Source: Kineococcus radiotolerans SRS30216 = ATCC BAA-149 (GTDB taxonomy: Bacteria; Actinomycetota; Actinomycetes; Actinomycetales; Kineococcaceae). Taken from it: a stretch of 32,000 bases of DNA. Below the pieces are notes generated by a model. That model ran no database searches and was not told the origin of the DNA. It saw only the letters and a list, made by a program, of their open reading frames with translations. The stretch lies in assembly GCF_000017305.1 (NCBI RefSeq), contig NC_009806.1, forward strand, positions 150,573 through 182,572. Reading direction: 5' to 3'. Made by a program: the position numbers and the translations under genes. How positions within the stretch are numbered: the first letter of the stretch is position 1; every line of letters starts with the position of its first letter. Of the stretch, positions 7,956 through 30,189 are shown piece after piece.

Positions 7956-7996
7956 GTCGCTGCGCACGACACGCCCCGAAAACCTAGCACACTAGG
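7956..7996 (-). promoter_or_regulatory. Conserved promoter/leader module, copy A (degenerate)
   Basis: Minus strand reads CCTAGTGTGCTAGGTTTT...GCAGCGAC. The core is palindromic here (CCTAG-N4-CTAGG). Confidence 0.4.
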
Positions 7997-8079
7997 AGTT
8001 GGTGCAGGCGGGAGCGTGGCGTCGCCGTGGGGCCGGTTGACCCCTGATGGTGGTGCGGTGAACGGGTGGTCGGTGATCT

Positions 8080-8430
8080 TCAGATCTCGTTGCGTCGGGA
8101 GAAGGTGGCGCAGGCGACGAGCTGGGAGGACTCGCTGCCGGGGATGAAGCGGATGTCGTAGAAGCAGCCGCTGAGCTCGTCTAGCGCGGTCAGGGGAGGG
8201 GCTCCGCAGGACCTGGTGACCAAGTCGGTCATGTCCTTGGCGTTGACCCGCAGCTTCACGAACGGGGTCCTTGGTGTCAGTGCTTCACCTACGGGACACA
8301 GGTAGGCCAGGAAGAAGGAGCCTGGCTCCGAGGCCAGGCCCGTGCGCGCAGCCGCCCCGCCAGCGGATGTCGAGGTGCTCGCGGGCGGGTTAGCGCGCTC
8401 GCCGCGGCCGCGGCGGTCGAAGAGGCTCAT
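8080..8430 (-). CDS. Hypothetical protein, translationally coupled to the WhiB gene
   Basis: ATG at 8430 overlaps the WhiB stop (ATGA). Only the last 116 aa of track ORF 8080-8787 look coding. Confidence 0.5.
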   Translation of the reverse strand: MSLFDRRGRGERANPPASTSTSAGGAAARTGLASEPGSFFLAYLCPVGEALTPRTPFVKLRVNAKDMTDLVTRSCGAPPLTALDELSGCFYDIRFIPGSESSQLVACATFSRRNEI

Positions 8431-8717
8431 CGTGTGCCCTCCCGCCGGTCCTTCTTCAGGCGCCGGCGCTCGCGCTCGGACAGCCCGCCCCAGATGCCGA
8501 AGCGCTCGTCGTGGGCCAGGGCGTACTCGAGGCACTGCTGGCGCACGTCGCAGGACTGGCACACCGCGCGCGCCGTCTTCGATGGTCCGCCCTTCTCGGG
8601 GAAGAAGACTTCGGGGTCGGTCTGGGCGCACAGTCCTGCCTCGCGCCAGGACGACGACGTGCCGTCGTCCGGCTCGGGGGTGGGGGTCTCGAAGCGGTGA
8701 AGTGTGTCGAGGGTCAT
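8427..8717 (-). CDS. whiB: WhiB-family (Wbl) iron-sulfur transcriptional regulator
   Basis: Four Cys in C-Xn-C-X2-C-X5-C (LCAQTD...AVCQSCDVRQQC), a GIWGG turn and a basic tail. ATG at 8717 with AGGAGGA 7 nt upstream. Confidence 0.85.
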   Translation of the reverse strand: MTLDTLHRFETPTPEPDDGTSSSWREAGLCAQTDPEVFFPEKGGPSKTARAVCQSCDVRQQCLEYALAHDERFGIWGGLSERERRRLKKDRREGTR

Positions 8718-8756
8718 GACGTTGTCCTCCTGCTGGTTGGGTGGTGGCCGGTTCCG

Positions 8757-8798
8757 GTCGCTGTCGGTGCCGAGCAACTAGAACCATAGCACGCTAGG
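8757..8798 (-). promoter_or_regulatory. Conserved promoter/leader module, copy B
   Basis: Minus strand reads CCTAGCGTGCTATGGTT...GACAGCGACCGG. The -10-like hexamer lies 66 nt upstream of the whiB ATG. Confidence 0.6.
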
Positions 8799-9060
8799 TC
8801 TGTCGTCGCAGCAATCCTCCTTGTGTCCTGTCTTACCCAGGTAGGTGCCGCTGACGGCACTGCTGTGACAGGTGCAGCACCCAATCTCGGCATTGGGTCG
8901 GCGGTGCACGGTCATCGGCCGGGTTGTCCGGTAGGGCCCTGTCGCTTCTACCGGCCAGACTGGCCAGCCCTCGCCTCTGCCGTGGTGGCCCGTCGTGAAC
9001 GCCCCGTGTGCGCTGTCCACAGGCGGATCGCGCCGTCACTCGAGGCGAAGGTCATCCGCG

Positions 9061-9303
9061 ATGATCGGCCGCGTGCAGAAGATGGCCGTCGAACAGTGGT
9101 GGACTCAGGCCGACCCCGTCACTCGGATCCGTGCGCTGCGACTCGAGGCAGCGGACTTGCTGCCCGAAGACATGCAGGTCGACCTAGCGATGGCCGGAGT
9201 CACGGTGAGCGCCATCGGTTGCGGATGGGACCAGCAGCCTGAGGGGTACTGGGTGCCTCAAGTCCTGTGGGACTTCTTGCGAGCCCGTGACCACGACGAC
9301 TGA
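9061..9303 (+). CDS. Hypothetical small protein (one of the few plus-strand genes in the island)
   Basis: Coding-like sequence MIGRVQKMAVEQWWTQADPVTRIRAL...; GAAGG upstream. The start is uncertain (9061 or 9082). Confidence 0.4.
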   Translation: MIGRVQKMAVEQWWTQADPVTRIRALRLEAADLLPEDMQVDLAMAGVTVSAIGCGWDQQPEGYWVPQVLWDFLRARDHDD

Positions 9304-9315
9304 CCGGCCACTGGA

Positions 9316-9337
9316 GGGAAACCGCCGCGGGCTTCCC
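9316..9337. terminator. Stem-loop between convergent genes
   Basis: In GGGAAACCGCCGCGGGCTTCCC, GGGAA/TTCCC pairs and an inner CC/GG pair extends the stem. Confidence 0.35.
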
Positions 9338-9396
9338 GACGGTCCGCGAAGACGTCAGGAAGTCCGCTTCATCCTCGATGGGAGAACCTGAGCAAC

Positions 9397-10446
9397 TCAC
9401 TCGTTCGGGGCCGGAAGCGGCGGCTGGGAAGGAGGGACGGTTGTGAGAGCCGCCTTGGCCTCGCACCGGTCTGGTTCGTTCTCGGCCCACACCTGGTCGA
9501 AGTCGGGTCCGACCCAGGCCGTCACACAGGTCCGAGAACGAAGCATCAGCGCTGCTGTCGCGTAGCGCTCATCTGATGCCACCTGGATGCCGGCGGCGGA
9601 CGGCGACGCGGTCGAGCTCAACGCCTGACGGAGCCGCTCCTGAGCTGTCCACGACGCAGAAGCGTTGGCCCGCAATGCATCCTGCAAAGCGGCGACCTGC
9701 AGCTGCCCAACCCCCGACCACGGCCAGCCGATCTGATCGATCTGGCGCAGCGATGCAGCCTTGAGGTCAGAGCTGAGCTGCTCACCGGTGTTCAGATCAA
9801 CATCGCTCGACCGGGCTGCACAATCACGAGCCCAGGCCGCGTTCCGCTTCTCCTTGCTCATGAAGGAGGCGGGGGAGAACAGGCCGTCGTCCAGGCTGGG
9901 CTTCGTGTCGGGATCCAAGGTGCTGACGCTGACGGTGCGGGCACCGTCGATCCCCTTCGTCGTAGCGGGAGTCACGGTCAAGAGCCGGCAGACGTGCACC
10001 GTCTCGGTGGGTTGCCACGAGTGCAGGGTGAGGCGCTGCCACCACTTGACGTCGTGATCGTTGGCCACCGTGAAGTCCAGCACCGCGCGAAATCCCCGCG
10101 CTGCAGCTGGAGCATCCGCGCCGCTGTACCCCGGGGCCACGACTTCGGACAGCGACACGCTTGCGCCAGACGCGGCGAAGGTGGCCTGCTGATCCGCACC
10201 GCCCGCCCCGGCGACGACGCGTGCCGCGGCTGCCCCCGCCACCTCATCGAACCTGCTGGTCGCAGGCTCATGGAAGGACGCAGTCGGACCGGCGATGAAG
10301 GCGACGCCCGCGAGGAAGAGACCCACGGCTGCGGCGCCGGCCGCGACAAGAGCAGCGTCGCCCGAGACGCTAAGTCTGCTGCCTCGCTTCCGGTTCTGGG
10401 GGGCGGACTTGCTGAGGTCGGTTCGTTCCACGGGCTGATCGATCAC
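9397..10446 (-). CDS. Membrane-anchored hypothetical protein (single N-terminal TM helix)
   Basis: AALVAAGAAAVGLFLAGVAFIAG is a TM segment followed by a large extracytoplasmic-looking domain. The GTG start overlaps the upstream stop (GTGA at 10443-10446). Confidence 0.6.
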   Translation of the reverse strand: MIDQPVERTDLSKSAPQNRKRGSRLSVSGDAALVAAGAAAVGLFLAGVAFIAGPTASFHEPATSRFDEVAGAAAARVVAGAGGADQQATFAASGASVSLSEVVAPGYSGADAPAAARGFRAVLDFTVANDHDVKWWQRLTLHSWQPTETVHVCRLLTVTPATTKGIDGARTVSVSTLDPDTKPSLDDGLFSPASFMSKEKRNAAWARDCAARSSDVDLNTGEQLSSDLKAASLRQIDQIGWPWSGVGQLQVAALQDALRANASASWTAQERLRQALSSTASPSAAGIQVASDERYATAALMLRSRTCVTAWVGPDFDQVWAENEPDRCEAKAALTTVPPSQPPLPAPNE

Positions 10447-10793
10447 AAGTCTTCGGGTCCTTCCGTGCTCTTGACGTCACGACTCAGGTAGCGGTGGAGC
10501 ATCTGCCGATCCAGTTCGCGGATCGGCTTGGTCACCGCCGCCGTTTCACGGGGGAGGTTGACGGCGTCGGGCCATCCGGTCAGGCTCACCGGCGCAGCGC
10601 CTCCAGGGCCACCGCCGGCCGCCGTGACCGCCGGTTCTCTGAGGTGCCGGTCTTGATCGGTGCACTCGCTGCCGCTGGGAGCATGGTGGGTGAGGATGCG
10701 GTGGCCCATCGAGGACGCCTCGTCTCGTCTGCAGGGGGTGGTATCGATGGAAGGTGTCGGTGCAGGTGGCGGCGAGCGGTGCGCGCCGCTCAC
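10443..10793 (-). CDS. Hypothetical protein, coupled at both ends
   Basis: GTGA overlaps at 10790-10793 and 10443-10446. GC3 counted by hand is about 70-85%. No recognisable domain. Confidence 0.4.
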   Translation of the reverse strand: MSGAHRSPPPAPTPSIDTTPCRRDEASSMGHRILTHHAPSGSECTDQDRHLREPAVTAAGGGPGGAAPVSLTGWPDAVNLPRETAAVTKPIRELDRQMLHRYLSRDVKSTEGPEDL

Positions 10794-11407
10794 GTCGAGC
10801 GCGGTTCCTTGGCTGCCGCCTGAGCGGCGGACACCCCGTCGTCGTAATCGTCGATGTGGATCCCGCCCGTGGGGTCATAGCGGCCGCCGACGTGGTCGGG
10901 GTCGTAAGCCATGAAGACCACGTCGGGGCGCCCGCCGTTGTAGGCGGAGTAGGTCTCGTAGCTCCACCCGTCGGGGGCGTACTCGTCGTTCCACCGCAGC
11001 CTCGCAGTCGGGACGAAGCCGGCAGCGGAGTAGACGCGAGGGAGGACGGTGTCGAAGCAGTCCAGGCGTCGGCCCCCGGCGGCGACGGCGGTGGCGAGCA
11101 TGGACTCAGCGCACCCGCGGTGCTCTCCGTCGGCGCGGGAGAACACCGAGACGATCTCGTCGCCCTTCAAGGCCACGCCGGAGCGGCCGTCGTCGGTGAC
11201 CAGCAGGCGCATCTGGGCGTACTCCTGCTCGGAGTAGACGTAGACCGACGCCGCGTAGGGAGTGCTCGACGCCAGTGCCGCGATCGAGTCGCGGTAGGCG
11301 CCGGCGTCCGCTGGCGCGAGCTCGTGCAGGGTCGGAGTGGACTTGCCCTGGGCGCGCAGCCGTGCGGCGAGGTCTTCAGGCGGTTGGTGCACCGCGATGG
11401 GCTGCAC
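10790..11407 (-). CDS. GNAT-like acetyltransferase-fold protein (C-terminal part of track ORF 10790-12046)
   Basis: GVALKGDEIVSVFSRADGEHRGCAESMLATAVAAGGRRLDCFDTVLPRVYSAAGFVPTARLRWNDEYAPDGW resembles the GNAT core. The frame becomes high-GC3 only below ~11425. Start is GTG 11407, or CTG 11425 overlapping the upstream stop. Confidence 0.45.
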   Translation of the reverse strand: MQPIAVHQPPEDLAARLRAQGKSTPTLHELAPADAGAYRDSIAALASSTPYAASVYVYSEQEYAQMRLLVTDDGRSGVALKGDEIVSVFSRADGEHRGCAESMLATAVAAGGRRLDCFDTVLPRVYSAAGFVPTARLRWNDEYAPDGWSYETYSAYNGGRPDVVFMAYDPDHVGGRYDPTGGIHIDDYDDGVSAAQAAAKEPRST

Positions 11408-11421
11408 CGATCGCCCGTCGA

Positions 11422-12016
11422 TCAGAAGCCGATCAGGAGCGCCTCCTCGATCGCCCCGTCCGACCACTGCGCCTCGATCGTCTCCCGCTGCGCCTGGGGC
11501 AGCTCCGGGCGCCAGCCCTGCCGCCGCAGGAACGCCTCGCGCTCCTCCGGCGTCAGGCGACTGGCCGCGGGACGGTGCTGCGGGCTGGTGGGTTCGGTCA
11601 CGGTCGTTTCCCTGCTCTCTGGTGTCGGTCGTGCTGCTGGCTGTGCTGCTGGTCGTGCCGCTGGGCGACTCGGTGCTGGTGGTCAGGGTGGAGGAAGACT
11701 CCGGCTGGGTCACCTCGGCGGCAGCAGCTCGCGCTGCAGCGCGTCGCTGGCGACCCTCCGCCAGGCGCTGCCGCAGGTGCTCCCGCTCTGCCGCTGTTCC
11801 CTCGACGTCGCCGTGCTCCAGTCGCTGCTGCAGGTCACGCTGCCCGGCGGGGGTGGAGTCGAAGTCCCGTTGGGCGTCCCGGTGACGCTGCAGCGCCTGC
11901 TGCCGTGACGGACCGTCGACACCGGCCTCCTCCAGCTCCTGTAGGCGCGCAGCAGCGGCCTCCAGGCGGTGCCGCCCATGGGCTGAGCAGCGCGGCCCAG
12001 GCTTCTTCTGACACAT
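11422..12016 (-). pseudogene. Frameshifted gene: Cys/His-containing N-terminus, coiled region, S/T-rich linker, then a 59-codon tail in the +1 frame
   Basis: ATG at 12016 with GAGGAAGGG upstream. Frame 0 is coding down to about 11615. Below that, the +1 frame has 56/59 G/C at third positions (...LTPEEREAFLRRQGWRPELPQAQRETIEAQWSDGAIEEALLIGF, stop 11422-11424) versus about 55% in frame 0. Total length is 595 nt, not a multiple of 3. Confidence 0.5.
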
Positions 12017-12125
12017 CGTCTTCGCCCTTCCTCGGTCTCGGTTCACCTCGGTAGGTGCTCCTGGGCCCTCGGGTGTGACAGGAGAAGGCCGCGGCCCATC
12101 ACCGCGTCGCTTGGCCAGCTCGTTC

Positions 12126-12157
12126 GAGCCGCGAGCCGCGAGCCGAGAGCCGCGAGG
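12126..12157. repeat. Heptamer tandem repeat GAGCCGC, 4 copies plus a partial copy
   Basis: Reads GAGCCGC GAGCCGC GAGCCGA GAGCCGC GAGG, within a 300-bp non-coding gap. Confidence 0.8.
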
Positions 12158-12262
12158 TGCTGAGGGAGGGGTGCCGCCGGTGGCGGGGGTGCGTCAGGTC
12201 TGGTGGGCAGGTGCTGGCGCCTGGGGCGGGGCGCTGCCCTCCTTCCGCCGGGGCTGGCGGTA

Positions 12263-12301
12263 GGTGCAGCGGGGGGCTGGTCGTCCGCCTGCCGCTGCAC
12301 C
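12263..12301 (-). terminator. 10-bp perfect stem-loop downstream of gene 12353-12601
   Basis: GGTGCAGCGG (12263-12272) pairs with CCGCTGCACC (12292-12301). The loop is 19 nt and there is no U-tract. Confidence 0.4.
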
Positions 12302-12352
12302 TGGCGTTGACCTCCGGGAGGGGAGTACCGCGGGGTAGCCGTTGCTGCCTGG

Positions 12353-12601
12353 TCACGGCCTCGGATGGCGCCACGCGGCGCTCGCGGCCCGGTAGGCCGC
12401 CTCCAAACGCCGCGCGAGGTCGTCAAGTGCTGGTTCGACGGCTCGGTCGAGGGCGATGCCGGCGAGGGTCACCAGCGTGAGCAGGAGGAGGAGGGCGGCG
12501 AGCGCGATCAGGCGGCGACGCCGGTACATGCGCTGACGCTCGAGGCCGGTGGGGCTGGCCAGCAGGTAGGGGTGGGCGGCGGGTCGGGTGGGCTGGAACA
12601 T
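12353..12601 (-). CDS. Small membrane protein
   Basis: 82 aa. RRRRLIALAALLLLLTLVTLAGIAL is a TM helix. GC3 is very high and AGGAG lies 9 nt upstream of the ATG. Confidence 0.6.
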   Translation of the reverse strand: MFQPTRPAAHPYLLASPTGLERQRMYRRRRLIALAALLLLLTLVTLAGIALDRAVEPALDDLARRLEAAYRAASAAWRHPRP

Positions 12602-12764
12602 GGGAGCGGTCTCCTGACCTGAGGGGTGGGTCGGCCTACGGGGGGTGGGGAGCAGCTGGGCGTCGTGCGAGGACGACGTCGCCGGGAGCAGGGGCCCGCG
12701 CGGTGGTTGCGGTGAACGGGTCTGGCTGTGGGGGCTGGTCTCGCCGGGTCAGCGGTCCTCGGGG

Positions 12765-13070
12765 TCAGCGGTCCTTAGGGAGAAGGACGGTGGTGACCGA
12801 ACGGTCGGCCTCGGTGATGACCCAGAAGGTCTGGTCGTCGATGTCGTAGGCGGAGAACAGGAGCTGACCGCTGTGGACGGCCTGCTCGTTCATGGCGGCG
12901 TACTCCGCGCTGATGCTGCCCCAGTCTCCGCTGGCGTGGCGGGTGAGCAGTCCAGCGATGTCGGTGGGGCCGTGCTGGCGGGTGCGGAGCCAGCGGCGGA
13001 CGCTGGCCGTCATCACCAGGTGTCCGGTCTGCACTCGCGGGGTCGGGGTGCTGGGGGCGGTGGCGTCCAC
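12765..13070 (-). CDS. Small plasmid-type protein with GDWG and ITEADRSxTTxLLPxx motifs
   Basis: LLTRHASGDWGS...FWVITEADRSVTTVLLPKDR matches, from memory, a small-protein family common on conjugative plasmids. GTG at 13070 with AGGAGGA 5 nt upstream. Confidence 0.6.
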   Translation of the reverse strand: MDATAPSTPTPRVQTGHLVMTASVRRWLRTRQHGPTDIAGLLTRHASGDWGSISAEYAAMNEQAVHSGQLLFSAYDIDDQTFWVITEADRSVTTVLLPKDR

Positions 13071-13107
13071 GGTGTCCTCCTGGTTGATGGTGCCGGGTGA
13101 CGATCGG

Positions 13108-13146
13108 GTCGCTGTCCGATCGACCTGTAAACCATAGCACGCTAGG
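13108..13146 (-). promoter_or_regulatory. Conserved promoter/leader module, copy C
   Basis: Minus strand reads CCTAGCGTGCTATGGTTT...CGGACAGCGACCCG. It ends 2 nt short of the stop codon (13148-13150) of the upstream gene. Confidence 0.65.
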
Positions 13147-13147
13147 T

Positions 13148-13726
13148 CTAGGCGAGGAAAGAGTGCCCGGTTGACGCGGCCTTTGCTCGCAGCGCGTCGC
13201 GTGTTCCTTCGATGTCCCGCCCGCCGGCCAGGCGCCGGTCCGGGTCGAGCGCCAGCAGCTCCAACAGCGCAGTCGCAGCCCCCGCGTGGTCACCGCCTCG
13301 GGCGGCCGTCAGGGCGGCCGCCTCCAGTTGCGCTGCGGCGTGCGAGCGCCGCTCTGCCCGCCGGGCCCTTTCTGCCTCGGTGAGGGTGAGCAGGTCGACG
13401 TGCTCGCTGAGGTAGGCGGCGGCGACCGACGTCACGTCCTGGGCGCTGAGTCCCGTCGGCGCTTGACGCCCCCACGCGTTGCCCACGGCCGCCGCAGCGT
13501 CGTAGAGCGCGGCGTGGCTGAGGTGGTCGGCCTCGAGGTGGCCCGGCTTCGTCTGGGCGCTGTCCAGGGCATCATCGTTGCCGGCGTCGTTGCCGGCGTC
13601 GTTGCCGGCGTCGTGGTGGCTGGCGTAGCTGGGTGCAGCGTGGGTCTCGGCGAGGATCGCCAGCCGTGCCCGGGCCTTGGGGGACAGGCTGGGCAGCAGG
13701 CACTCGCCTATGGGGAAGCGGGACAC
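13148..13726 (-). CDS. Hypothetical protein with an in-frame DAGN x3 repeat
   Basis: GTG at 13726 with GGAGG 5 nt upstream. Alanine-rich helical sequence. Contains the 12-bp triplication at 13576-13614. Confidence 0.55.
   Translation of the reverse strand: MSRFPIGECLLPSLSPKARARLAILAETHAAPSYASHHDAGNDAGNDAGNDDALDSAQTKPGHLEADHLSHAALYDAAAAVGNAWGRQAPTGLSAQDVTSVAAAYLSEHVDLLTLTEAERARRAERRSHAAAQLEAAALTAARGGDHAGAATALLELLALDPDRRLAGGRDIEGTRDALRAKAASTGHSFLA
13576..13614. repeat. 12-bp tandem repeat CGTTGCCGGCGT, about 3.2 copies, in frame (DAGN)
   Basis: Units at 13576-13587, 13588-13599 and 13600-13611. Confidence 0.85.
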
Positions 13727-13835
13727 GGTGACCTCCGGGGTGTGATGGGGAGTAGATCAGCGGTGGTGGGCGCCTGGGGGAGTGGGCGCGCAGGTCGCGG
13801 CGAGCCCGACCTGTTGGTGCCGACTGGCGGAGAGT

Positions 13836-13871
13836 CACCCGGCGGCCGCGGGACGCCGCGGCCGCCGGGTG
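13836..13871 (-). terminator. 16-bp perfect GC-rich palindromic stem-loop directly after gene 13879-14292
   Basis: CACCCGGCGGCCGCGG-GACG-CCGCGGCCGCCGGGTG. It begins 8 nt past the stop and has no U-tract. Confidence 0.55.
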
Positions 13872-13878
13872 GGGCCGG

Positions 13879-14292
13879 TCAGTAGGCCGCTTGCGTCACG
13901 TCGGCGCCGAGGGCGCCGGCCTGCTCGTAGATGTCGCTCAGGCTGACCGTGCGTTCCTCGCCGCGGCTGTTGATCGCCACCGTATAGCCGATGAAGTAGC
14001 GCAGGTTCTCGGCACTGACCTCCATGAAGATCGCCACCGATCCTTCGGCCAGCCACTGCGAGACGTGGGCCGGCACTTCCAGGTCGATCACTTCGTCGGA
14101 GCCCTCGACGGCGATGCTGCTCGGCCAGCTCCCGTCGGGGCTGTTGCTCACCAGACCCGCCCGCAGGGGGTTGTCGTCGGTGGTGATGACCTCCATGCCG
14201 GTGGCCGCGGCGAAGTCGGCGAGCGCGCTGCGAGCGGCCTCATCACGCAGGAGGAAGTAGTTGCTGCGTGCCTTGGCGTGGTAGTCGGCCAT
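13879..14292 (-). CDS. Hypothetical protein
   Basis: ATG at 14292 (MADYHAKARSNYFLLRDEAARS...). The N-terminal extension in track ORF 13879-14373 comes from reading through the conserved module. Confidence 0.6.
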   Translation of the reverse strand: MADYHAKARSNYFLLRDEAARSALADFAAATGMEVITTDDNPLRAGLVSNSPDGSWPSSIAVEGSDEVIDLEVPAHVSQWLAEGSVAIFMEVSAENLRYFIGYTVAINSRGEERTVSLSDIYEQAGALGADVTQAAY

Positions 14293-14340
14293 GAGGTGCC
14301 GGTCCCTTCGGGGGTTCTGGTTGGAGTGGGGTGCTGGAGG

Positions 14341-14379
14341 GTCGCTGTCCCCCAACACCTCAAACAATAGCACACTATG
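14341..14379 (-). promoter_or_regulatory. Conserved promoter/leader module, copy D
   Basis: Minus strand reads CATAGTGTGCTATTGTTTGAGGTGTTGGGGGACAGCGACCC. Confidence 0.65.
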
Positions 14380-14462
14380 TACGTCGTGAGGTCAGTTCAG
14401 CGAACTCACTGCGTGCGCTCCTTGTGAGCGCCGGCGCACCGCGAGAGGGGTGCTCGGCCAGC

Positions 14463-14579
14463 TCAGGTAGCGCGACGGGCCAGCTCGGCGGCGACGTCAC
14501 GGGCCAGGACGCGCAGCGCGGCGACCGACAGGTGCGCCACCTCGGCGGTCTCTCCCACCGTCAGGCAGTAGGAGTTCAC
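14463..14579 (-). CDS. Mini helix-turn-helix protein (excisionase/MerR-like HTH), 38 aa
   Basis: The GTG start overlaps the upstream stop (GTGA at 14576-14579). LTVGETAEVAHLSVAALRVLARD is HTH-like. Very short, so tentative. Confidence 0.35.
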   Translation of the reverse strand: MNSYCLTVGETAEVAHLSVAALRVLARDVAAELARRAT

Positions 14580-23230: not shown

Positions 23231-23257
23231 CCGCCCCGGTCGTCTGTGCCGGGGCGG
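23231..23257 (-). terminator. 9-bp GC stem-loop after gene 23269-24030
   Basis: CCGCCCCGG-TCGTCTGTG-CCGGGGCGG. Confidence 0.4.
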
Positions 23258-23268
23258 GGTCGAGCTAG

Positions 23269-24030: not shown

Positions 24031-24056
24031 GGTGGTCCTCCGTGGTGCGGCCCGGG

Positions 24057-24094
24057 GTGACGTCCTCCAACACCACAAACCATAGCACACTAGG
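24057..24094 (-). promoter_or_regulatory. Conserved promoter/leader module, copy G
   Basis: Minus strand reads CCTAGTGTGCTATGGTTTGTGGTGTTGGAGGACGTCAC. Block 2 is partly replaced. Confidence 0.6.
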
Positions 24095-24174
24095 CTAGAG
24101 GCCACTAGGCACATCCCGAACCGTCGAGGTGGGCGTGGGTTGTCGTCCCGGCGGGACCGCGAGCACCGCCTCGG

Positions 24175-24846
24175 TTACGCGCTGGAGCCGAGCAACGCGT
24201 CTGCCCGGCGGGCCGTCTCCACCTCACGCGCCCACGACGGCCAGGCTGAACTGCAGGCCGCGCACGACGGCATCCGACGGGCTGCGACCTCACGGAACGG
24301 GCGACCGACATGGCGGCCGCACTCGGTCAACGCATCCCCCACCCGCACCGCGTGCACGCGCGCTGGCTCCTCAGCGTGCTGGACGTAGCGCCAGGTCGGC
24401 AGGTCCGGCAGCAAGGCCACCAGACTCGCCGGATCCATTCTCCACGCCGCCAGACGCGCGAGCTGCTCCCCGATGCCCCCGGTTCCCGCCAGGGCGTCCA
24501 GGGCTCGCGGCCAGACGGCGCCCACCTTGCGGGCGTAGGCGCTCCCGGCCAGGACGATGACGTGGGCGGTGTCGAGCAGGTCGGCGCGCTTGGCCTGCTC
24601 CCGCACGATGCGCTCAGGAACCGCGATCGGAGAGTCCATGCGCAGCTCGTACGGGGCGACCTCGGCGTCGAGGGTCAGCAGGCCGTGCTTGGCGGACAGG
24701 ATGCGAACGCGGTCCGCAGGGCCGACGGTCAGCGCCGTCGCCAGGCAGGCGCGGAAGTAGCTGCCGATGTAGAGGTCTCGCGCCGGCCTCAGAGAGTCCG
24801 CCTTCTTCCCTCCGCAGGGGATGATGACGAGGGGCTGCGTGGTCAT
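24175..24846 (-). CDS. DUF6884-like protein (recalled family; function unknown)
   Basis: VIIPCGGKKADSLRPARDLYIGSYFR...ILSAKHGL resembles the N-terminal signature I recall for DUF6884 proteins of actinophages and mobile elements. ATG at 24846 with AAGGAG upstream. Confidence 0.5.
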   Translation of the reverse strand: MTTQPLVIIPCGGKKADSLRPARDLYIGSYFRACLATALTVGPADRVRILSAKHGLLTLDAEVAPYELRMDSPIAVPERIVREQAKRADLLDTAHVIVLAGSAYARKVGAVWPRALDALAGTGGIGEQLARLAAWRMDPASLVALLPDLPTWRYVQHAEEPARVHAVRVGDALTECGRHVGRPFREVAARRMPSCAACSSAWPSWAREVETARRADALLGSSA

Positions 24847-25054
24847 GGGTCTCCTTCGTCTACCGGGCCCGGCTGCCGCCCCTTCAGGGCGGTACCTGGC
24901 ACCGCGAGCGCGGGGTCGGTCCACCAGGCTGGTTCGTCTGCTGGTCCATCTGGCCGGTCTGCCCAGGCGAGGGCTTCATCTCTGCGAGCTGCTGCCAGCC
25001 GCGCGGTCCTGGCGAGGCGCTCGCCACTGTCTTGGGCGACTGGACCTGCTGTGG

Positions 25055-25429
25055 TCAGAGGTCGATGACGAGGCCATCGGGTTCGCCGGCGCTGTCGTAC
25101 TTCGCCTTCGTAGCGAGCGGTTCGTCCAGAGCCTCGCCCAGGTCCACCGGCCCCAGGGCTGTGCCGTCGGAGAACTGCACGTGGCCGTTGCGGTCGTAGA
25201 AGTGGCCGTTGTCCCACTCCGTCGTCCAGAAGGTCACTCGTGTCGCGCTGGTTCCGGGGCGGGCGAGCAGATGCGCCTGCACCGGAGTCGAGGCGGCTAC
25301 GGCAGTGCGGACGAGCTGCCCGAGCTTGGTGTCCAGACGGCGGGCCTGCTCGGCGTAGACGGCGCGGTCCAGGGCGTCAAGGTCGGCGTCGTCTAGGCCA
25401 GCAAGGGTGTCGATGAGAGGGCTGGTCAC
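25055..25429 (-). CDS. Hypothetical protein
   Basis: GTG at 25429 with AGGAG 7 nt upstream. Only the last 124 aa of track ORF 25055-26107 look coding. Confidence 0.5.
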   Translation of the reverse strand: MTSPLIDTLAGLDDADLDALDRAVYAEQARRLDTKLGQLVRTAVAASTPVQAHLLARPGTSATRVTFWTTEWDNGHFYDRNGHVQFSDGTALGPVDLGEALDEPLATKAKYDSAGEPDGLVIDL

Positions 25430-25488
25430 GGTGAGCTCCTGCTGGTGCTTGCGGGGTGGGGTGCTGTCGTGGGGTGGCGTCAGCTGGC

Positions 25489-25526
25489 GCCGGGTGCCGT
25501 CCGCCTCCTTGCGGGCGGCACCCGGC
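25489..25526 (-). terminator. 16-bp stem (1 mismatch) immediately after gene 25531-26175
   Basis: GCCGGGTGCCGTCCGC-CTCCTT-GCGGGCGGCACCCGGC, starting 5 nt past the stop. Confidence 0.5.
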
Positions 25527-25530
25527 AGGG

Positions 25531-26175
25531 TCAGGCCGGCACGCCGCTGGCGGCGCGCACCCGACGGGCCAGCTCGATCAGCTCGTGCTGGCGCGCGGAC
25601 AGTTCGGCGCCGTCGGCGCAGTCGGCCAGAGTGCGGATGATGCCCTCGACGTCGCAGGGGGTCAGGTCGACGGGCGTGGCCTGCTCGGCGGCCACCGCCT
25701 CCAGGCGTGCGGCCTGAGCGGCGTACCGGGCCGAGGGCAGTTCCCCGCGTCGCATGGACTCGTTCTCGGCTTCGAGCGTCACGTACCGGGCGGCCACCTC
25801 GCGCAGGCGGGCAGCTTCGGTGGCGGGCTCGTCCGTCGTGATGGTGCCGCCGTACGGGGCGTACCGCTCGTCCCACAGGTTGTAGCTGTAGGTGGACCAG
25901 GTGACCGTTGTGTGCTCGGCCAGGTCGGGGCGGTGCTCGGCCGAGGAGGCGGTGAAGACACGGTTGACGCGGTAGGTCTCGGTCAGGACGGCGTCGATGC
26001 GGGCACGGACGTAGTAGGCGCGGGGGGAGTCGGCGGGAACGGGGTGGCCGTTGATGGTGACGACCTCGACCTCGTAGGTGCCGGGCAGGATCGTGTACTT
26101 GTCCCACCAGGACGCGGTGGCGAGGGTGCGGTCCACGTACTCCGTCGCGGCGGGGATGGTCAGTGTGAGCGTCAT
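25531..26175 (-). CDS. Hypothetical protein
   Basis: ATG at 26175 with AGGAGGA upstream. The translation is coherent (MTLTLTIPAATEYVDRTLATASWWDKY...). Confidence 0.6.
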   Translation of the reverse strand: MTLTLTIPAATEYVDRTLATASWWDKYTILPGTYEVEVVTINGHPVPADSPRAYYVRARIDAVLTETYRVNRVFTASSAEHRPDLAEHTTVTWSTYSYNLWDERYAPYGGTITTDEPATEAARLREVAARYVTLEAENESMRRGELPSARYAAQAARLEAVAAEQATPVDLTPCDVEGIIRTLADCADGAELSARQHELIELARRVRAASGVPA

Positions 26176-26200
26176 CGGGATCCTCCTGGTCGGGGGTTCT

Positions 26201-26236
26201 GTGCGTCCTTCACGGCTTAAACCATAGCACACTAGG
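26201..26236 (-). promoter_or_regulatory. Conserved promoter/leader module, copy H (block 1 only)
   Basis: Minus strand reads CCTAGTGTGCTATGGTTTAAGCCG. The GGACAGCGACC block is absent. Confidence 0.55.
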
Positions 26237-26345
26237 CATGAGGTAGGTAGGTGGACTTGGTTCGTGCTTCTGGCGGGCGCGCCGGCTCGGTCGGCGCCTC
26301 AGGGGATGCGCGGAGGTGAGCTGGCTCCGGCGGACCCGCGCGTGT

Positions 26346-26534
26346 TCAGGTCGCCGGTTCGATGGCGGTGACGTTGTAGGAGGTGGTGCGAGAGCTGATT
26401 TCCTCGCCCGCCAGGTGCTGGTCGTCGGCTTCGTCCTCTGAGTCGGCCTCGACCTCGAAGACGATGACCTCGGATCTCTCGACGACGACGCGGTACTTCA
26501 CGGGGGAACGCCCTTCACTGGAGGTGGCGGGCAC
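26346..26534 (-). CDS. Small acidic hypothetical protein
   Basis: High-GC3 frame (VKYRVVVERSEVIVFEVEADSEDEADDQ...). Start is uncertain (GTG 26534 or 26501). Confidence 0.4.
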   Translation of the reverse strand: MPATSSEGRSPVKYRVVVERSEVIVFEVEADSEDEADDQHLAGEEISSRTTSYNVTAIEPAT

Positions 26535-26589
26535 CGTGGGTGGCGGTCCATGGCGCTCGCGGCCGACGTCGTGCGGGTGCTTGGGTGGC

Positions 26590-26623
26590 GGGTCGGGCGG
26601 CGGGGGGAGTCGCCGCCCGACCC
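26590..26623 (-). terminator. 13-bp perfect GC stem-loop
   Basis: GGGTCGGGCGGCG-GGGGGAGT-CGCCGCCCGACCC, located between genes 26722-27108 and 26346-26534. Confidence 0.45.
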
Positions 26624-26721
26624 GTTCCGCCGTCCTTCAGCTGTCGGCGGTGGAAGGGGGGGCTTGGAGCGGGTGCACCGGGGACGGTGGTGCCGCCCCC
26701 GGCGCAGCAGTCGTGGGCTGG

Positions 26722-27108
26722 CTACAGCTCCCCGGCCAGCTGCGGCCGGTACTGGTAGGCCCCGCAGGCGGCGAGGCTCTCGAAGTCCTCACCGACGGCG
26801 TCGGCCAGGTGGTGCAGGCTGGCCAGGAGGTCGGTCAGGGCCGTCCCGAGGTCGACGTCGGCTCCGGTCTGCTCCCAGAATGCCCGGAGCGCTACCGCTG
26901 CCGCTCCGGCGCGCCGGGTGTTGTCGTGGGCGACGTCCTCGGCGCTCGTGCCGTTGCGGAAGCGTCCGTCGCCGTCGGCGAGGGTGAGCGCGGCGGTGAG
27001 GTCCGTCAGGTTCGCCTCGACGGTGAGGGGCAGGCTGGCGGGGGCGATGACGTCGGGGGTGACGTCAGGGGTGACGTGGGCAGCGGGAGTGGAAGTGGTG
27101 GTGGACAT
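26722..27108 (-). CDS. Hypothetical protein
   Basis: ATG at 27108 with GGAGG upstream. The N-terminus contains an HVTPDVTPDV repeat. Confidence 0.55.
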   Translation of the reverse strand: MSTTTSTPAAHVTPDVTPDVIAPASLPLTVEANLTDLTAALTLADGDGRFRNGTSAEDVAHDNTRRAGAAAVALRAFWEQTGADVDLGTALTDLLASLHHLADAVGEDFESLAACGAYQYRPQLAGEL

Positions 27109-27151
27109 GGCCGGTACCTCCGGTGCTGGTTGGTCTCGTGGTGTCGACGGG

Positions 27152-27190
27152 GTCGCTGTCCCGCCAACACGAGAACCATAGCACACTAGT
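27152..27190 (-). promoter_or_regulatory. Conserved promoter/leader module, copy I
   Basis: Minus strand reads ACTAGTGTGCTATGGTTCTCGTGTTGGCGGGACAGCGACCCC. Confidence 0.7.
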
Positions 27191-27265
27191 AGCACGTGAG
27201 GAAGAGGTTGGCCTCGACGTCATGCGGTCACGCCGCTGCCGCGCCCGTGTGCGCGGAGGTGCACG

Positions 27266-27613
27266 TCACCGGCGCGAGATCGCCCGCACAGCGTCGGCCC
27301 GTCCCGCCTCAGTCGGCGCGCCCCAGTCGTAGGCCGGCAGAGCGGGCATGGTCTCCCCGTCGGCGTCGAAGTTGATCCAGTGGATGTCCTCGCCCAGGGA
27401 GCGGGCGTAACGGCTGACGGCGAGGAGGTTGGGGAAGCCCGCGGCCCGCATCGCCTCGTCGTGCTCCTCGACGTCGTCGTGCTGCACGTTCACGAAGAGC
27501 CCGTACTCGTGGGCGATGACGCGCGGGCCGTCGAGCTGGAAGACGGACTCAGCGGTGTCGACTTCGCGCTGGGTGAGGTGGCAGGTGGACAGGTCCAGGT
27601 ACTTCGCGATCAC
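27266..27613 (-). CDS. Hypothetical protein (N-terminal YLDLSTCHLT motif)
   Basis: GTG at 27613 with GGAGGAG 7 nt upstream. The translation is coherent. It resembles small accessory-region proteins, but I cannot name the family with confidence. Confidence 0.6.
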   Translation of the reverse strand: MIAKYLDLSTCHLTQREVDTAESVFQLDGPRVIAHEYGLFVNVQHDDVEEHDEAMRAAGFPNLLAVSRYARSLGEDIHWINFDADGETMPALPAYDWGAPTEAGRADAVRAISRR

Positions 27614-27754
27614 GGGTGACTCCTCCGGCGAGGGCTGGGCAGGTGGTATGAGGGCTGGCGCACCCGTGGGGGCCCACAGGGCGCGGTGGGTCGAGGCAGG
27701 GAGGGGCGCCGCGTCGGGGCCGGCGCCCGCCTCCGGCGCTCCGGCAGGGGGGGC

Positions 27755-28060
27755 TCAGGACGTGCCCATCTCGGGGTACAGGCGGCGCACCTGGGCGTCG
27801 GCCCATGTGCGCCGGTCCTCGGCGTCGTCGGCCTCGTCGAGGGCGTAGGCCCAGTGCTCGGTGCCACGGGTCCGAAGCCCCGCGCGCACCGCGAGCTCGG
27901 CTCCGGCGCGGCTAATCTGGGCCTCAGGGCGCTCACCGTAGTCGGTGGCCGCGTCGTAGGACTCAGCGGCCAGGATGTTGACCAGGTCCAGGCGGTCCAG
28001 GGCTACCCGCACCTGAACCGTGACCATGTGGCGCCCATTGCGGCGCAGGGTGGGCTGCAT
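27755..28060 (-). CDS. Hypothetical protein
   Basis: Coherent translation. Start is 28060 or 28027. Confidence 0.5.
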   Translation of the reverse strand: MQPTLRRNGRHMVTVQVRVALDRLDLVNILAAESYDAATDYGERPEAQISRAGAELAVRAGLRTRGTEHWAYALDEADDAEDRRTWADAQVRRLYPEMGTS

Positions 28061-28136
28061 GCTTCCTCGTCTGGTCGGGGGCTGGTCCGCTAGCTGCTGG
28101 CGGTGTAGTGGACGGTCGAGAGCGTCGAGGTTGGGC

Positions 28137-28433
28137 TCAGCCGACCACCTCCCGCACGGGCACGTAGACGGCCAGGCCCCCGACGTGCAGGCTGGAGAAG
28201 GTGCCCTGTGCCATGGGCACCAGGCCGTCGTATCCCTGGGGGTACTGGGCCTTCAGCGCGAACGCCTCAGCCTCGGTGTAGCCGGGGAAAAGCACCCCGC
28301 CTGCCTTCTCGACCTTGCGGGCTTCTGCCGCGGTGACGGCCTGCGACTCGAGGCCGGCCTCGAAGGTGGTGTCGCCCTTGACGCCATAGGCGCTGTGCTG
28401 AGCGACGGTGTACTGGTCCTTGGCACTGCTCAT
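28137..28433 (-). CDS. Hypothetical protein
   Basis: ATG at 28433. The translation is coherent (MSSAKDQYTVAQHSAYGVKGDTTFEAG...). Confidence 0.55.
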   Translation of the reverse strand: MSSAKDQYTVAQHSAYGVKGDTTFEAGLESQAVTAAEARKVEKAGGVLFPGYTEAEAFALKAQYPQGYDGLVPMAQGTFSSLHVGGLAVYVPVREVVG

Positions 28434-28529
28434 GTGCTGCTGTCCTCTCGGGTGGTTGCGTGGGTTCGTTCTGCTGCCGCTGGCGGTCGGCGCCGGTGCG
28501 ACCAGCTCGCGGTCTGCGGGCGGGCCGTG

Positions 28530-28769
28530 TCAGAGCCGGGTGAGCGAGCTGGTCGGGATGATCGTGACGTCGCCGTCGGCGCGGATGACGCGGGTGTGCG
28601 GGGTGAGGTTGGGGGTGCGCCGGGTGCAGCGGCGGGTGTGCTGGTGCCGCGAGAGGTAGGTGCTGTCGCTGGCGCAGCCGACGTACTCGACCCGGTCCGG
28701 GACGATGAACTTCTGGTCGGTGGCGATGGTGACCGTCTCGCCGGTGGTGGTCCAGGTGGCCTGTTCCAT
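28530..28769 (-). CDS. Hypothetical small protein
   Basis: ATG at 28769 with GGAGG 7 nt upstream. It is the first gene after module copy J. Confidence 0.5.
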   Translation of the reverse strand: MEQATWTTTGETVTIATDQKFIVPDRVEYVGCASDSTYLSRHQHTRRCTRRTPNLTPHTRVIRADGDVTIIPTSSLTRL

Positions 28770-28782
28770 CGGGTGCCTCCGT

Positions 28783-28825
28783 GTCGCGGTGCCTTCAACT
28801 TGTGGCTAAACCATAGCACACTATG
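28783..28825 (-). promoter_or_regulatory. Conserved promoter/leader module, copy J (block 2 degenerate)
   Basis: Minus strand reads CATAGTGTGCTATGGTTTAGCCACAAGTTGAAGGCACCGCGAC. Confidence 0.55.
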
Positions 28826-28894
28826 TACGCGAGAGGTACACGGATCCCGTGACGTCGCATCCCAGAAGCCGCAGCGCACGGAGACGGCGCCGGA

Positions 28895-29479
28895 CTACAG
28901 CTCCAGAGCGGTGACACGAGCTCGGCGTCGACCGCGGTGATCGCGGTCGACGACCACCCGCAGCGCCATTGCCGTGAACCGAGCGCCTGTCCGCAGGATG
29001 ACGGCCGCCTCGTAGACACCGGCCCCGACGTGGTGCAGGTGCACGCTCTTGACGACCGGCGTCACCAGTCCCGCCATGGGCTGAGCGACCCCAGGAGCGC
29101 ACAGCCGGCGCTCGCGGGCGGCCAGGAGCTGCTGACGCCGCGAGACCGTCTGGTAGACCTCCGGACTGCACCAGCGCAGGAGCTGCTGGCGGGGGCGGCG
29201 GCTGGCGAAGACCCCCAGGTAGACGATCATCCATCGCCGCACCCAGTGCTCGACCTCTTCCATGTCCTGAGACGCCACGCCGGCCCCCGGTGGACGAGCA
29301 GGCGCCACGTCCATCGAGAGCACGAACTGCCCCTCGCACTGGGAAGCCTCGCCGAGCGGAGACCTCTCCTCACGAGGTGCTCTGCGGTGGACGTCGCTGA
29401 AGACGACCTGTCGGCTCTCCTCCCGCTGCTTGTCCTGCTGCCTGACGTACTGGCGAGCTGTGCTCTGGATCGTGTCCAC
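28895..29479 (-). CDS. Rv3235-like (DUF6459-type) protein
   Basis: YLGVFASRRPRQQLLRWCSPEVYQTVSRR...AAVILRTGARFTAMALRVV...RARVTALEL follows the GxRPxxQLxRWxxPxVY ... AxAxRLE ... ctaLEL pattern I recall for the Rv3235 family. GTG at 29479. Confidence 0.5.
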   Translation of the reverse strand: MDTIQSTARQYVRQQDKQREESRQVVFSDVHRRAPREERSPLGEASQCEGQFVLSMDVAPARPPGAGVASQDMEEVEHWVRRWMIVYLGVFASRRPRQQLLRWCSPEVYQTVSRRQQLLAARERRLCAPGVAQPMAGLVTPVVKSVHLHHVGAGVYEAAVILRTGARFTAMALRVVVDRDHRGRRRARVTALEL

Positions 29480-29621
29480 GAGCTACTCCCTGGATCGGTT
29501 GGATCGGTGCCGAAGCCGGCTGTCTGGGGCGCGGCCCACGGCCGCGGAGCGGGCTGGAGAGCCACGCAGAGCCGTGAGGCCGGAAGCACGCGCCTCCTGG
29601 CCCCACGAGGGAGCGAGAAGG

Positions 29622-30110
29622 TCAGACCGCGGCGTGCGCGTCGCGCCGCTGGAAGGACCAGGTAGCGGCCTCGTCGTAGCCGGGGAGCCGGTTGATGGCG
29701 GCCCGCTCGATGGCAGCAACCCAGGTCGCCGCTCGGCTCGAGGCCCAGCCCGGGTGCTCGCAGCTCTGGTAGACGTAGCCGCGCGCGGCCTTCAGGATGG
29801 CGACGGTGACGTCAGCGCCCAGGCCGGCGAGCTCTGCGGGCCGCACCGGCTGCCAGCGGTAGGAGAAGACGAGCGCCGCGTACTCGGCGCGCTCGGAGTC
29901 CTCCATCGAGGAGTAGCGGTGCTGGACGCTGAGCACGTTCTCGGCCAGCAACTCCTGGCCCAGTGCATCGGCGCTGATGACGCGGGAGTCGAGGCACACA
30001 GTGTCGATGGGGTTCGTCCCCGGCGCGTGGTGGTAGGCGATGACCTGCCACTGGCGAGCGAAGGTCACCAGCAGGTCGATGTGGTCGTTCGACTGCACGT
30101 AGGCGCTCAC
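29622..30110 (-). CDS. Hypothetical protein
   Basis: GTG at 30110 with GAGGAG 8 nt upstream. The translation is coherent. It is the first gene after module copy K. Confidence 0.6.
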   Translation of the reverse strand: MSAYVQSNDHIDLLVTFARQWQVIAYHHAPGTNPIDTVCLDSRVISADALGQELLAENVLSVQHRYSSMEDSERAEYAALVFSYRWQPVRPAELAGLGADVTVAILKAARGYVYQSCEHPGWASSRAATWVAAIERAAINRLPGYDEAATWSFQRRDAHAAV

Positions 30111-30150
30111 GGTGGTGCTCCTCTATCGGTACCGGTTGTGTGCTGGCCGG

Positions 30151-30189
30151 GTCGCTGTCCGTCCAACACTCAAACCATAGCACACTAGT
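30151..30189 (-). promoter_or_regulatory. Conserved promoter/leader module, copy K (rightmost)
   Basis: Minus strand reads ACTAGTGTGCTATGGTTTGAGTGTTGGACGGACAGCGACCCGG. Confidence 0.7.

Follow-up and report, generated by a model that had tools for sequence, protein, structure and literature searches.

The CUP (conserved upstream) repeats from the leading region of IncN plasmid pKM101 are proteobacterial sequences of ~150 bp with known repressors, and the establishment region of the IncW plasmid R388 contains ArdK-controlled promoters. In the KorA/KorB regulon of the IncP plasmid RK2, palindromic operators overlap the -10 elements of many promoters, and the repressors are known as well. The stoperators of cluster A mycobacteriophages are non-promoter sites in many intergenic regions, at which a bound repressor blocks elongation. 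Here, a 32,000-nucleotide (nt) stretch of plasmid pKRAD01 of Kineococcus radiotolerans (NC_009806.1, positions 150,573 to 182,572; hereafter, the window) was analyzed, in which 11 copies of a 55-70-nt module would divide an array of small genes into expression units. The plasmid is linear with a size of 182.6 kb (182,572 bp), and these repeats go unmentioned in its genome paper (PMC2587704). We propose, with a probability of roughly 55%, that the copies make up a plasmid regulon built on extended -10 promoters and a stem-loop in the 5' leader, together with a plasmid-specific reader of the promoter block. The promoter-plus-leader repeat is apparently undescribed in the libraries searched, and repeats of this kind are already known where other plasmids and phages have their early genes.

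As in the CUP and ArdK-controlled systems, near-identical co-oriented promoter repeats would each precede a single small early or establishment gene or a few of them, and would belong to one regulon. Unlike CUP, the module is unrelated in sequence, only 55-70 nt long and actinobacterial, and it combines a predicted extended -10 element without a -35 with a covarying leader hairpin. The arrangement of the Kor regulon, in which one plasmid repressor acts on an identical operator over many -10 elements, is what is proposed here for the extra invariance of the block; however, unlike that of the RK2 operators, the palindromic character of the block (TAG-N4-CTA) is weak at most. With the stoperators, the module shares asymmetric, oriented repeats of 13-16 bp that run through the gene array of an actinobacterial mobile element, but the repeat described here has promoter anatomy. 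The T7 promoters with their RNase III sites and the lambda nut boxB elements are similar in that conserved promoters along a co-oriented array are followed by an RNA hairpin, and the combination of a conserved loop with variable stems recalls boxB. In contrast to these phages, the module comes with no evident boxA, N-like protein or phage-type polymerase, and its 9-13-bp stems fall short of the length usual for RNase III substrates.

Two further systems come close to the module. Frpo and ssi elements are likewise repeated, structured and oriented elements upstream of early plasmid genes, hairpin included (PMC11541004; Masai and Arai 1997). However, the -35 and -10 elements of Frpo lie inside an intrastrand duplex of ~300 nt, whereas the -10 block of the module lies outside the hairpin and has no significant pairing partner. 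In cluster K mycobacteriophages, the start-associated sequences (SAS), which also have an extended form, are present in 11-19 oriented copies upstream of a subset of genes, about half of them with an adjacent imperfect inverted repeat, and are kept before genes of different families (PMC3203893). Both are oriented short repeats in an actinobacterial mobile element, but the SAS overlap the ribosome-binding site, keep a constant spacing to the start codon and are thought to be translational (PMC3203893). Such a fixed start distance was not found here, as the module lies 40-71 nt from the start codon and its internal geometry is fixed to the -10 block.

The repeat itself was readily recovered. 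The core 13-mer, AACCATAGCACAC, matched 11 sites in the window with <=2 mismatches, all on the plus strand (the module reads on the minus strand; Table 1), whereas shuffled sequences gave an expectation of 0.14 copies and 0/100 shuffles reached 11. The same 11 copies were obtained in an unbiased repeat search as the largest repeat family of the window, and a covariance model built from 9 module copies and run with its filters off found exactly these copies and none further. Eleven co-oriented copies had been claimed in the original prediction, and both the repeat and its coordinates were borne out by these scans. The copies, designated M1 to M11 from the head of the array, are all intergenic and lie at the gene-proximal end of the gap. 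In every one of them, the hexamer ends 40-71 nt before a start codon that is preceded by a Shine-Dalgarno sequence, in agreement with the placement claimed earlier. No features of an insertion sequence (IS) or a miniature inverted-repeat transposable element (MITE), a terminal repeat of which would have refuted the original prediction, were seen.

Beyond the window, general searches returned little. Scanning a genome collection with the 15-mer TAGYGTGCTATGGTT gave only single chance matches among the matches listed, nearly all of them unrelated and non-actinobacterial, and the same pattern gave only single matches in viral contigs. The 56-nt module had no blastn match among PLSDB plasmids and GenBank phages, and megablast of 24 kb against plasmids and phages returned only a WhiB fragment. 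No Rfam family was found at the modules, the sole match with E <= 1 being the sub-threshold Scr3920 at 11316-11419, away from the modules. A literature search for the motif returned only unrelated primer sequences, and one for 'mobile promoters' with Kineococcus returned nothing. The ends of public contigs were also considered as transcript ends and rejected; these contigs break at 31-mers common to M5 and M6.

The module begins with an invariant block of 16 nt, TAGTGTGCTATGGTTT, which extends from -20 to -5 and was defined from 24 aligned copies of five sources (11 from the window and 13 from related DNA). Upstream of the block, neither a conserved sequence nor a conserved -35 element was found in these 24 copies. 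The extended -10 pattern TGnTAnnnT is kept in 11/11 window copies, namely, as TGCTATGGT in nine and as TGCTATTGT and TGCTAGGTT in one each. The corresponding hexamers are TATGGT (nine copies), TATTGT (one) and TAGGTT (one), and TAnnnT is also present in the 13 copies of the relatives. Across the 24 copies, T-15/G-14 are intact, T-12, A-11 and T-7 are invariant, and TGTGC at -17 to -13 is invariant except for a C at -17 in two copies. The block also fits a longer form, TGnGnTAnnnT (TGTGC plus TATGGT), at every consensus position; this extended form, TGnGnTAnnnT or TRTGn, is known in corynebacteria and other Gram-positive bacteria. The missing conserved -35 is as expected, because extended -10 promoters need none. 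For 97% of the starts mapped in Corynebacterium glutamicum, TAnnnT is located 3-11 nt upstream, and the weak -35 was ascribed there to extended -10 elements (PMC3890552).

The position of the first copy points in the same direction. M1 is located in a divergent intergenic region of 111 nt, with its block 32 nt from the opposite start codon and no co-directional gene upstream, and the first module of a related ~105-kb contig (L161) likewise heads its array from a divergent gap of ~110 nt. Therefore, with a divergent gap of ~110 nt at the head of the array, the promoter has to lie in M1. The extended -10 reading offered in the original prediction was thus reinforced by TGnTAnnnT in 11/11 copies, the missing -35, the divergent-gap position and the promoter-like features kept in the diverged module of another lineage (L163), in which the remaining positions differ. 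The further remark that the block holds more invariant bases than a -10 needs was also strengthened, since the block stays constant while the leaders diverge and is swapped whole in another lineage.

A second box (GGACAGCGACCC; also given as GGGTCGCTGTCC) follows the block. It is exact in 6 copies and recognizable in 8, degenerate in M5 (24090) and absent from M2 (28821) and M4 (26232), and the gap from GGTT to GGACAGCGACCC is 12 nt in the six window copies with an exact box. The original prediction had treated this box as a linear leader motif, which did not hold, as it is actually the loop of a covarying stem-loop; the accompanying '(TTGG)n' element is the 5' arm of a hairpin with the loop ACAGCGAC. 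GG-ACAGCGAC-CC represents the closing pairs and the 8-nt loop of a 9-13-bp stem, which starts 1-5 nt after the hexamer, at about the predicted transcription start. Compared with shuffles, the hairpin is strong in 5/11 window copies (single-sequence z of -1.9 to -3.6), whereas M6, M7 and M10 have a weak, mismatched version, M5 has a degenerate one, and M2 and M4 have none.

The stem was supported by compensatory changes. With a gap-free alignment, RNAalifold predicted the stem and 4/9 pairs were compensatory, whereas a mixed MAFFT alignment (A2) yielded no structure owing to a register shift between its short and long stem variants. In 9 copies, 86.9% of the cells were paired, compared with 28-47% when the partner was slid by 1-3 columns. 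For 20 model-aligned rows, the value was 85.8% versus 16-55% after sliding, double changes were present in 8/11 pairs, and 0/500 shuffles reached the observed percentage paired, the compensatory-cell count or the covariation score. Moreover, M9 and M11 present the same loop within unrelated stem sequences, M9 differs from the orthologous leader L161_18139 by a compensatory exchange of A-U for G-C, and the short and long stem variants differ by one paired position lost or gained. The covariance model scored the sense strand far higher, mainly from the asymmetry of the loop. A conserved structure with compensatory changes is what would be expected of a structured cis-regulatory leader. An intrinsic terminator is not indicated, as the sequence after the hairpins is A/C-rich and none was picked up by a terminator scan. 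A third box, AACCA(G), absent from the original prediction, was found 34-44 nt after GGTT in 13/24 copies, while the background chance of AACCA anywhere in 75 nt is ~6%. Its position is fixed to the block and not to the start codon, which it overlaps at times (AACCATG).

Relatives of the array were obtained in two ways. A strict two-box pattern matched five metagenome stretches and no viral contig, and two contigs (L160 and L161) were reached via first-gene and divergent-gene homologues. Together, 13 further copies were found in syntenic arrays, six in L161, four in L160, two in L149 and one in L151, where the single module precedes a LigA homologue. The array of L161 is partly syntenic with the window. 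A match in another stretch (L147) had a low score and may be due to chance. The copies occupy orthologous positions in relatives whose proteins are 60-90% identical. Between L160 (1866-1890) and the window (27266-28825), where the proteins are ~80-90% identical, the four genes of the M2 unit are missing in L160, which keeps the M2 block, the leader and the first five codons, and M3 follows 75 nt later; this suggests that units are lost or gained.

A more distant lineage (L163 and L164) encodes a first-gene protein that is 61% identical but contains no match to the covariance model. Instead, L163 carries its own module in three copies (Table 1), consisting of TTGCGn, 17 nt, TGTTAGTRT and then a hairpin, GGGG-ACGGAAGCGACCG-CCCC, with an AGCGAC-containing loop. 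Two of the three copies precede orthologues of the M1 (162-amino-acid (aa)) and M6 (103-aa) genes. The architecture and an AGCGAC-containing loop thus persist, while the block has been exchanged whole. Two of the L163 copies have a helix between the beginning of the leader and the Shine-Dalgarno region (CUUCAG/CUGAAG and UUCUC/GAGAG, respectively). In the L163 leaders upstream of 6221 and 8254, CAGCGAC can be seen by eye in presumptive hairpin loops and without the block, but minimum-free-energy folds place neither of these in a loop.

The gene divergent from M1 encodes a 175-aa protein and has its own promoter-like sequence, TGGTAGTTT (30206-30214), 7 nt from the ATG and 28 nt from the M1 hexamer. 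Its L161 homologue has TGATAGGTT, 6 nt and ATG, and the mRNA of the 175-aa gene is probably leaderless, judging from this spacing. The protein is 42% identical to that of L161 and has 5 representatives among 1.84 billion proteins; no homologue was found in L163. As the gene is restricted to elements with the window-type module, it is a candidate partner or regulator of the modules. The first gene of the array belongs to a different, 162-aa family with an invariant YxYQSCEHPGW motif. The AlphaFold2 (AF2) model of the 162-aa protein is confident (predicted local distance difference test (pLDDT) score 91), and it had no fold or sequence match in PDB and no Pfam or PHROG family. Homologues were found on 70 plasmids, of Actinobacteria and Proteobacteria, and 0 in the phage collection, with more distant homologues in prophage-like contigs.

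On plasmid pMSPYR101 of Mycolicibacterium gilvum, a 162-aa homologue lies in a co-oriented run of small genes ~6 kb from a MobF relaxase gene and is transcribed towards it. This region (L159, NC_014811.1 151705-170133) contains 5-7 copies of a different intergenic module of ~260-300 nt, each preceding a small gene and comprising a conserved segment that runs up to the ribosome-binding site, together with a GCCCGCC-TGC-GGCGGGC hairpin. Those intergenic regions also contain three identical IS110 insertions. Such a layout is that of conjugative leading regions, for which repeated single-stranded DNA (ssDNA) promoters and anti-defence genes have been documented (PMC11541004).

In the proposed regulon, TAGTGTGCTATGGTTT would act in double-stranded DNA as a -35-independent, TGnGn-extended -10 promoter for the host primary sigma factor, and transcription would start ~7 nt after TATGGT, at the foot of the stem-loop. 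With a start at the hairpin foot, the mRNA would therefore begin with a 5'-terminal hairpin showing the loop ACAGCGAC in 8/11 copies, followed by the AACCA(G) box and the Shine-Dalgarno sequence. The hairpin would most likely work in RNA, either by shielding and so stabilizing the 5' end or by giving a factor a site to dock. Stem-loops at the 5' terminus are known to stabilize mRNA, and the conservation of the loop further suggests docking. The units with a hairpin would share post-initiation control, which M2 and M4 would escape. A second, plasmid-specific DNA reader is probable, given that 16 positions stay constant despite the divergence of the leaders and that the block has been replaced from lineage to lineage. 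The simplest such reader would be a repressor whose operator overlaps the -10 element, and the array would then be one regulon, like the early or establishment regulons elsewhere.

Several points weigh against this proposal. The promoter is assigned from a sequence match and from position, the AACCA box is left without explanation, and the leading-region status of the Kineococcus array is an analogy drawn via one shared gene family. As the hairpin is strong in 5/11 copies only, weak in 4 and absent in 2, it is not required for expression. Stems of up to 13-14 bp begin 1-3 nt after the hexamer (1 nt in M3), so the outermost pairs would lie upstream of the canonical start. The 20-row alignment, which contains two antisense rows, had been fitted to the model; the copies are limited in number and related to each other; and the 12 G·U versus 7 A·C oppositions favor the sense strand weakly. 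For the candidate regulator, the 175-aa protein, no DNA- or RNA-binding domain was found beyond a faint Pfam PUA_3 match, and its AF2 model (pLDDT 55) was too poor for a structure search. Finally, the units are possibly shorter than assumed, because strong hairpins lie inside the presumed cassettes.

A more far-reaching version of the proposed regulon is tentative and, in our judgment, doubtful. It assumes a self-contained plasmid expression system, in which an element-specific protein reads the 16-mer and a second factor docks on the ACAGCGAC loop of the nascent 5' hairpin. The reader would be the 175-aa divergent protein or a factor encoded outside the window, and the loop factor would switch early or establishment genes after initiation through antitermination, translational gating or controlled decay. 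The block and the loop would co-evolve with their readers, which would explain the different block but similar loop in the related plasmid. If true, this would mean a new actinobacterial RNA motif and a new class of regulator.

Other explanations place the function of the block or of the hairpin elsewhere. The 16-mer could be the site of an element-encoded sigma factor or RNA polymerase, in which case its resemblance to the host extended -10 would be incomplete or due to coincidence. T7-type promoters are 23 bp long, and those of T7, T3 and SP6 vary with their polymerases; 16 invariant positions without a -35, the co-oriented arrays, the likeness of the copies within an element and the different block before orthologous genes in a related lineage are all compatible with such machinery, and a gene for a sigma factor of the extracytoplasmic function (ECF) type lies 3 kb upstream of the L161 array. 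However, that gene has no counterpart next to the window array, ECF promoters look different from the block, and domain scans of the window proteins found no polymerase or sigma gene. The block also fits TGnGnTAnnnT fully, the L163 module adds a TTGCGn -35 at 17 nt as in a primary-sigma promoter, and the neighboring divergent gene has an ordinary TGGTAGTTT, 7 nt and ATG. Dedicated machinery is thus considered unlikely. As with the sites between T7 early genes, the block might alternatively be transcribed in long read-through RNA and pair with AACCAGCAC, enclosing the hairpin as an apical stem in an intercistronic processing or insulating site of the RNase III type, instead of or besides being a promoter. 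AACCA(GCAC), at its fixed distance of 34-44 nt, is reverse-complementary to (GTGC)TGGTT, and full-module folds gave a bipartite stem in several copies (e.g., M3, L161_16958 and L160_1787) with either AACCAGCAC or AACCATG as the partner. The basal helix of the -10 block and AACCAGCAC was convincing by eye but was rejected as no better than random, the mean duplex energy between the block and downstream sequence being -10.2 kcal/mol versus -9.7 kcal/mol for random same-strand 32-mers (p = 0.18). Moreover, the block is too invariant for covariation, and in M1, which no co-directional gene precedes, the block is just 32 nt from the divergent start, so that a promoter must lie in the module there. 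An intercistronic RNA element is therefore rather improbable.

The hairpin could also serve in ssDNA, the sense strand folding during conjugative entry or lagging-strand synthesis, with a basal duplex that mimics a promoter, A-11/T-10 bulged, and RNA polymerase making a short primer that ends in the loop. A conserved loop on variable stems would suit Frpo/ssi- or ssoA-type priming, and the loop AGCGA resembles the CS-6 element TAGCG(T/A) of ssoA, whose loop consensus is TAGCGT. The first-gene homologue near the MobF relaxase gene of pMSPYR101 and the several ssDNA promoters of conjugative leading regions (PMC11541004) fit this view too. Nevertheless, the block has no inverted partner within 2 mismatches, its pairing with the AACCA region is not above background, and DNA folds of the intergenic regions pair the block differently from copy to copy. 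The template strand has no -10-like element facing the genes, so no mRNA would arise from ssDNA; transfer of the plasmid as ssDNA is an assumption; and the modules are always gene-proximal with a Shine-Dalgarno directly after them, a place that a priming site does not need. We regard an ssDNA function as very unlikely. Reduced to DNA, the inverted repeat might be only a palindromic site for a dimeric repressor, with the loop as an uncontacted spacer and no RNA structure. Many copies show good conservation of the outer arms GTGTTGG/CCARCAC, and a site at about +1 to +30 is one where a repressor could block elongation. A palindromic operator should show the opposite of what is seen, as here the loop is most conserved and the arms are most variable; the arms of M9, M11, L151 and L160b are unrelated in sequence yet pair, arm length shifts by paired insertions and deletions, and 4-8 pairs show compensatory changes, which makes an operator-only function highly improbable. 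Lastly, the short ~65-nt repeat with GGTT...AACC ends might be the remnant of a mobile element, a MITE or an IS terminal repeat, its likeness to a promoter being incidental, and IS110 copies do lie within the repeated intergenic modules of the mycobacterial analogue. This is scarcely credible, as no transposase domain was found in the proteins scanned in the window or annotated on its contigs, the block lacks a terminal inverted repeat, orientation and position relative to the start codons are strict, and orthologous sites in relatives with 60-90% identical proteins indicate that the copies are old and not recently mobile.

The window has a G+C content of 69%, and Table 1 lists its features. 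The array is broken at ~17.3-19.9 kb by plus-strand cargo genes (HAD, mycothiol S-transferase), which are flanked by three copies of a 31-nt repeat (TTCrCGGTCmTCCCGCGTTG...) at 16255-16285, 17313-17343 and 18095-18125. Pfam domains are rare among the array proteins and comprise WhiB, DEDDh/RNase_T exonuclease, AAA_21 ATPase, DUF6459, DUF5983, DUF6884 and, in the protein encoded at 20879-21322, a DprA-type winged helix. No relaxase gene or oriT was found in the window, and no tRNA gene was found at the modules. Very strong, near-perfect GC hairpins with stems up to 16-17 bp and without a U tract lie directly 3' of genes within the presumed cassettes and could be terminators, attenuators or 3' stabilizers. 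Terminators preceding each module were unsupported, as the pre-module gaps are not notably structured (mean z = -0.22). The last unit (M11) closes at 5519-7234 on the minus strand with the DEDDh exonuclease and AAA_21 ATPase genes; PADLOC matched defence components for the exonuclease (DEDDh and PDC-S48) and the ATPase (mad3 and AriA), and the couple may be a defence or counter-defence pair. Adjoining the array, the plasmid carries a full-length gene for 1-deoxy-D-xylulose 5-phosphate (DXP) reductoisomerase (Dxr; 2603-3850, plus strand), whose neighbors encode an HTH_36 protein, Cys-rich at its C-terminus, and a protein with a CAP domain. Within the HTH_36 gene, a 42-nt unit repeated 2.8 times (1851-1961) encodes PRGAMAAPR-like repeated segments, and a perfect 12-nt tandem repeat of 8.6 copies (GGCTCGCACGCA) occupies 389-491.

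Table 1. Modules, genes and related features of the window, with the modules of the L163 lineage. Scores are from the covariance model; z refers to the hairpin.
Feature	Position	Strand	Score (bits)	z	Description
Small-gene array served by modules	5519..30110	-			~35 co-oriented genes, mostly orphan
Core 13-mer matches	7980, 8782, 13130, 14363, 16162, 21760, 24078, 26220, 27174, 28809, 30173	- (module)			
Divergent gene adjoining M1	30222..30749	+			175 aa
M1	30135..30189	-	74.6	-3.64	Array head; block 30188-30173; TATGGT 30179-30174; hairpin 30169-30140; loop ACAGCGAC; predicted start near 30167
Gene after M1	29622-30110	-			162 aa
M2	28801..28825	-	23.1	+0.61	Promoter block alone, without hairpin or AACCA box
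Gene after M2	28530-28769				79 aa
M3	27131..27190	-	73.2	-3.56	Block; 14-bp hairpin 27173-27135; AACCA from 27131 down to 27127
Gene after M3	26722-27108				128 aa
M4	26188..26236	-	26.1	-0.26	Block with divergent, unstructured leader
Gene after M4	25531-26175				214 aa
M5	24041..24094	-	27.5	-0.33	Block and degenerate hairpin; loop ACGTCAC
Gene after M5	23269-24030				253 aa
M6	21720..21776	-	47.3	+0.45	Block; mismatched 'short-variant' hairpin (GGAGG/CCCCC); AACCA overlaps ATG
Gene after M6	21405-21716				103 aa
M7	16120..16178	-	43.1		95% identical to M6 over 57 nt
Gene after M7	15277-16116				279 aa
M8	14322..14379	-	51	-3.06	Hexamer TATTGT; 11-bp hairpin 14362-14327; AACCA from 14322 down to 14318
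Gene after M8	13879-14292				137 aa
M9	13085..13146	-	66.7	-1.92	Block; differing stem (CGATCGG/CCGATCG); AACCAGGAGG
Gene after M9	12765-13070				101 aa
M10	8738..8798	-	35.9	-0.66	Block; weak hairpin, loop ACAGCGAC; AACCAGCAGGAGG
Gene after M10	8427-8717				WhiB (Pfam Whib)
M11	7937..7996	-	30.3	-2.39	Hexamer TAGGTT; 9-bp hairpin with unrelated stem (GCGTGTCGT/ACGACACGC), loop GCGCAGCGACA; AACCAG
Genes after M11					228-aa gene, then DEDDh exonuclease, then AAA_21 ATPase
GC hairpins in presumed cassettes	13727-13878, 15186-15276, 23182-23268, 25430-25530, 26502-26721, 29480-29621				
Example of GC hairpin	26588-26625				GGGTCGGGCGGCG-ACTCCCCC-CGCCGCCCGACCC
L163 own module, three copies	2264-2338, 5069-5143, 7695-7770				Positions in ENA ERZ23579015 NODE_2698

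Large actinobacterial plasmids are rich in small orphan genes, and a portable module of ~60 nt driving a dozen units would provide a handle on their expression logic. The candidate regulon marks which orphan genes would be co-expressed. In addition, the module would offer a strong -35-independent promoter for high-GC hosts and a candidate cis-regulatory RNA hairpin outside Rfam. In the homologous array of a mycobacterial MobF plasmid, and in that of a second, uncultured lineage, the genes are likewise preceded by repeated modules particular to each. Thus, module-punctuated early-gene arrays may be general in actinobacterial plasmids, as a counterpart to proteobacterial leading regions with their CUP and Frpo arrays.

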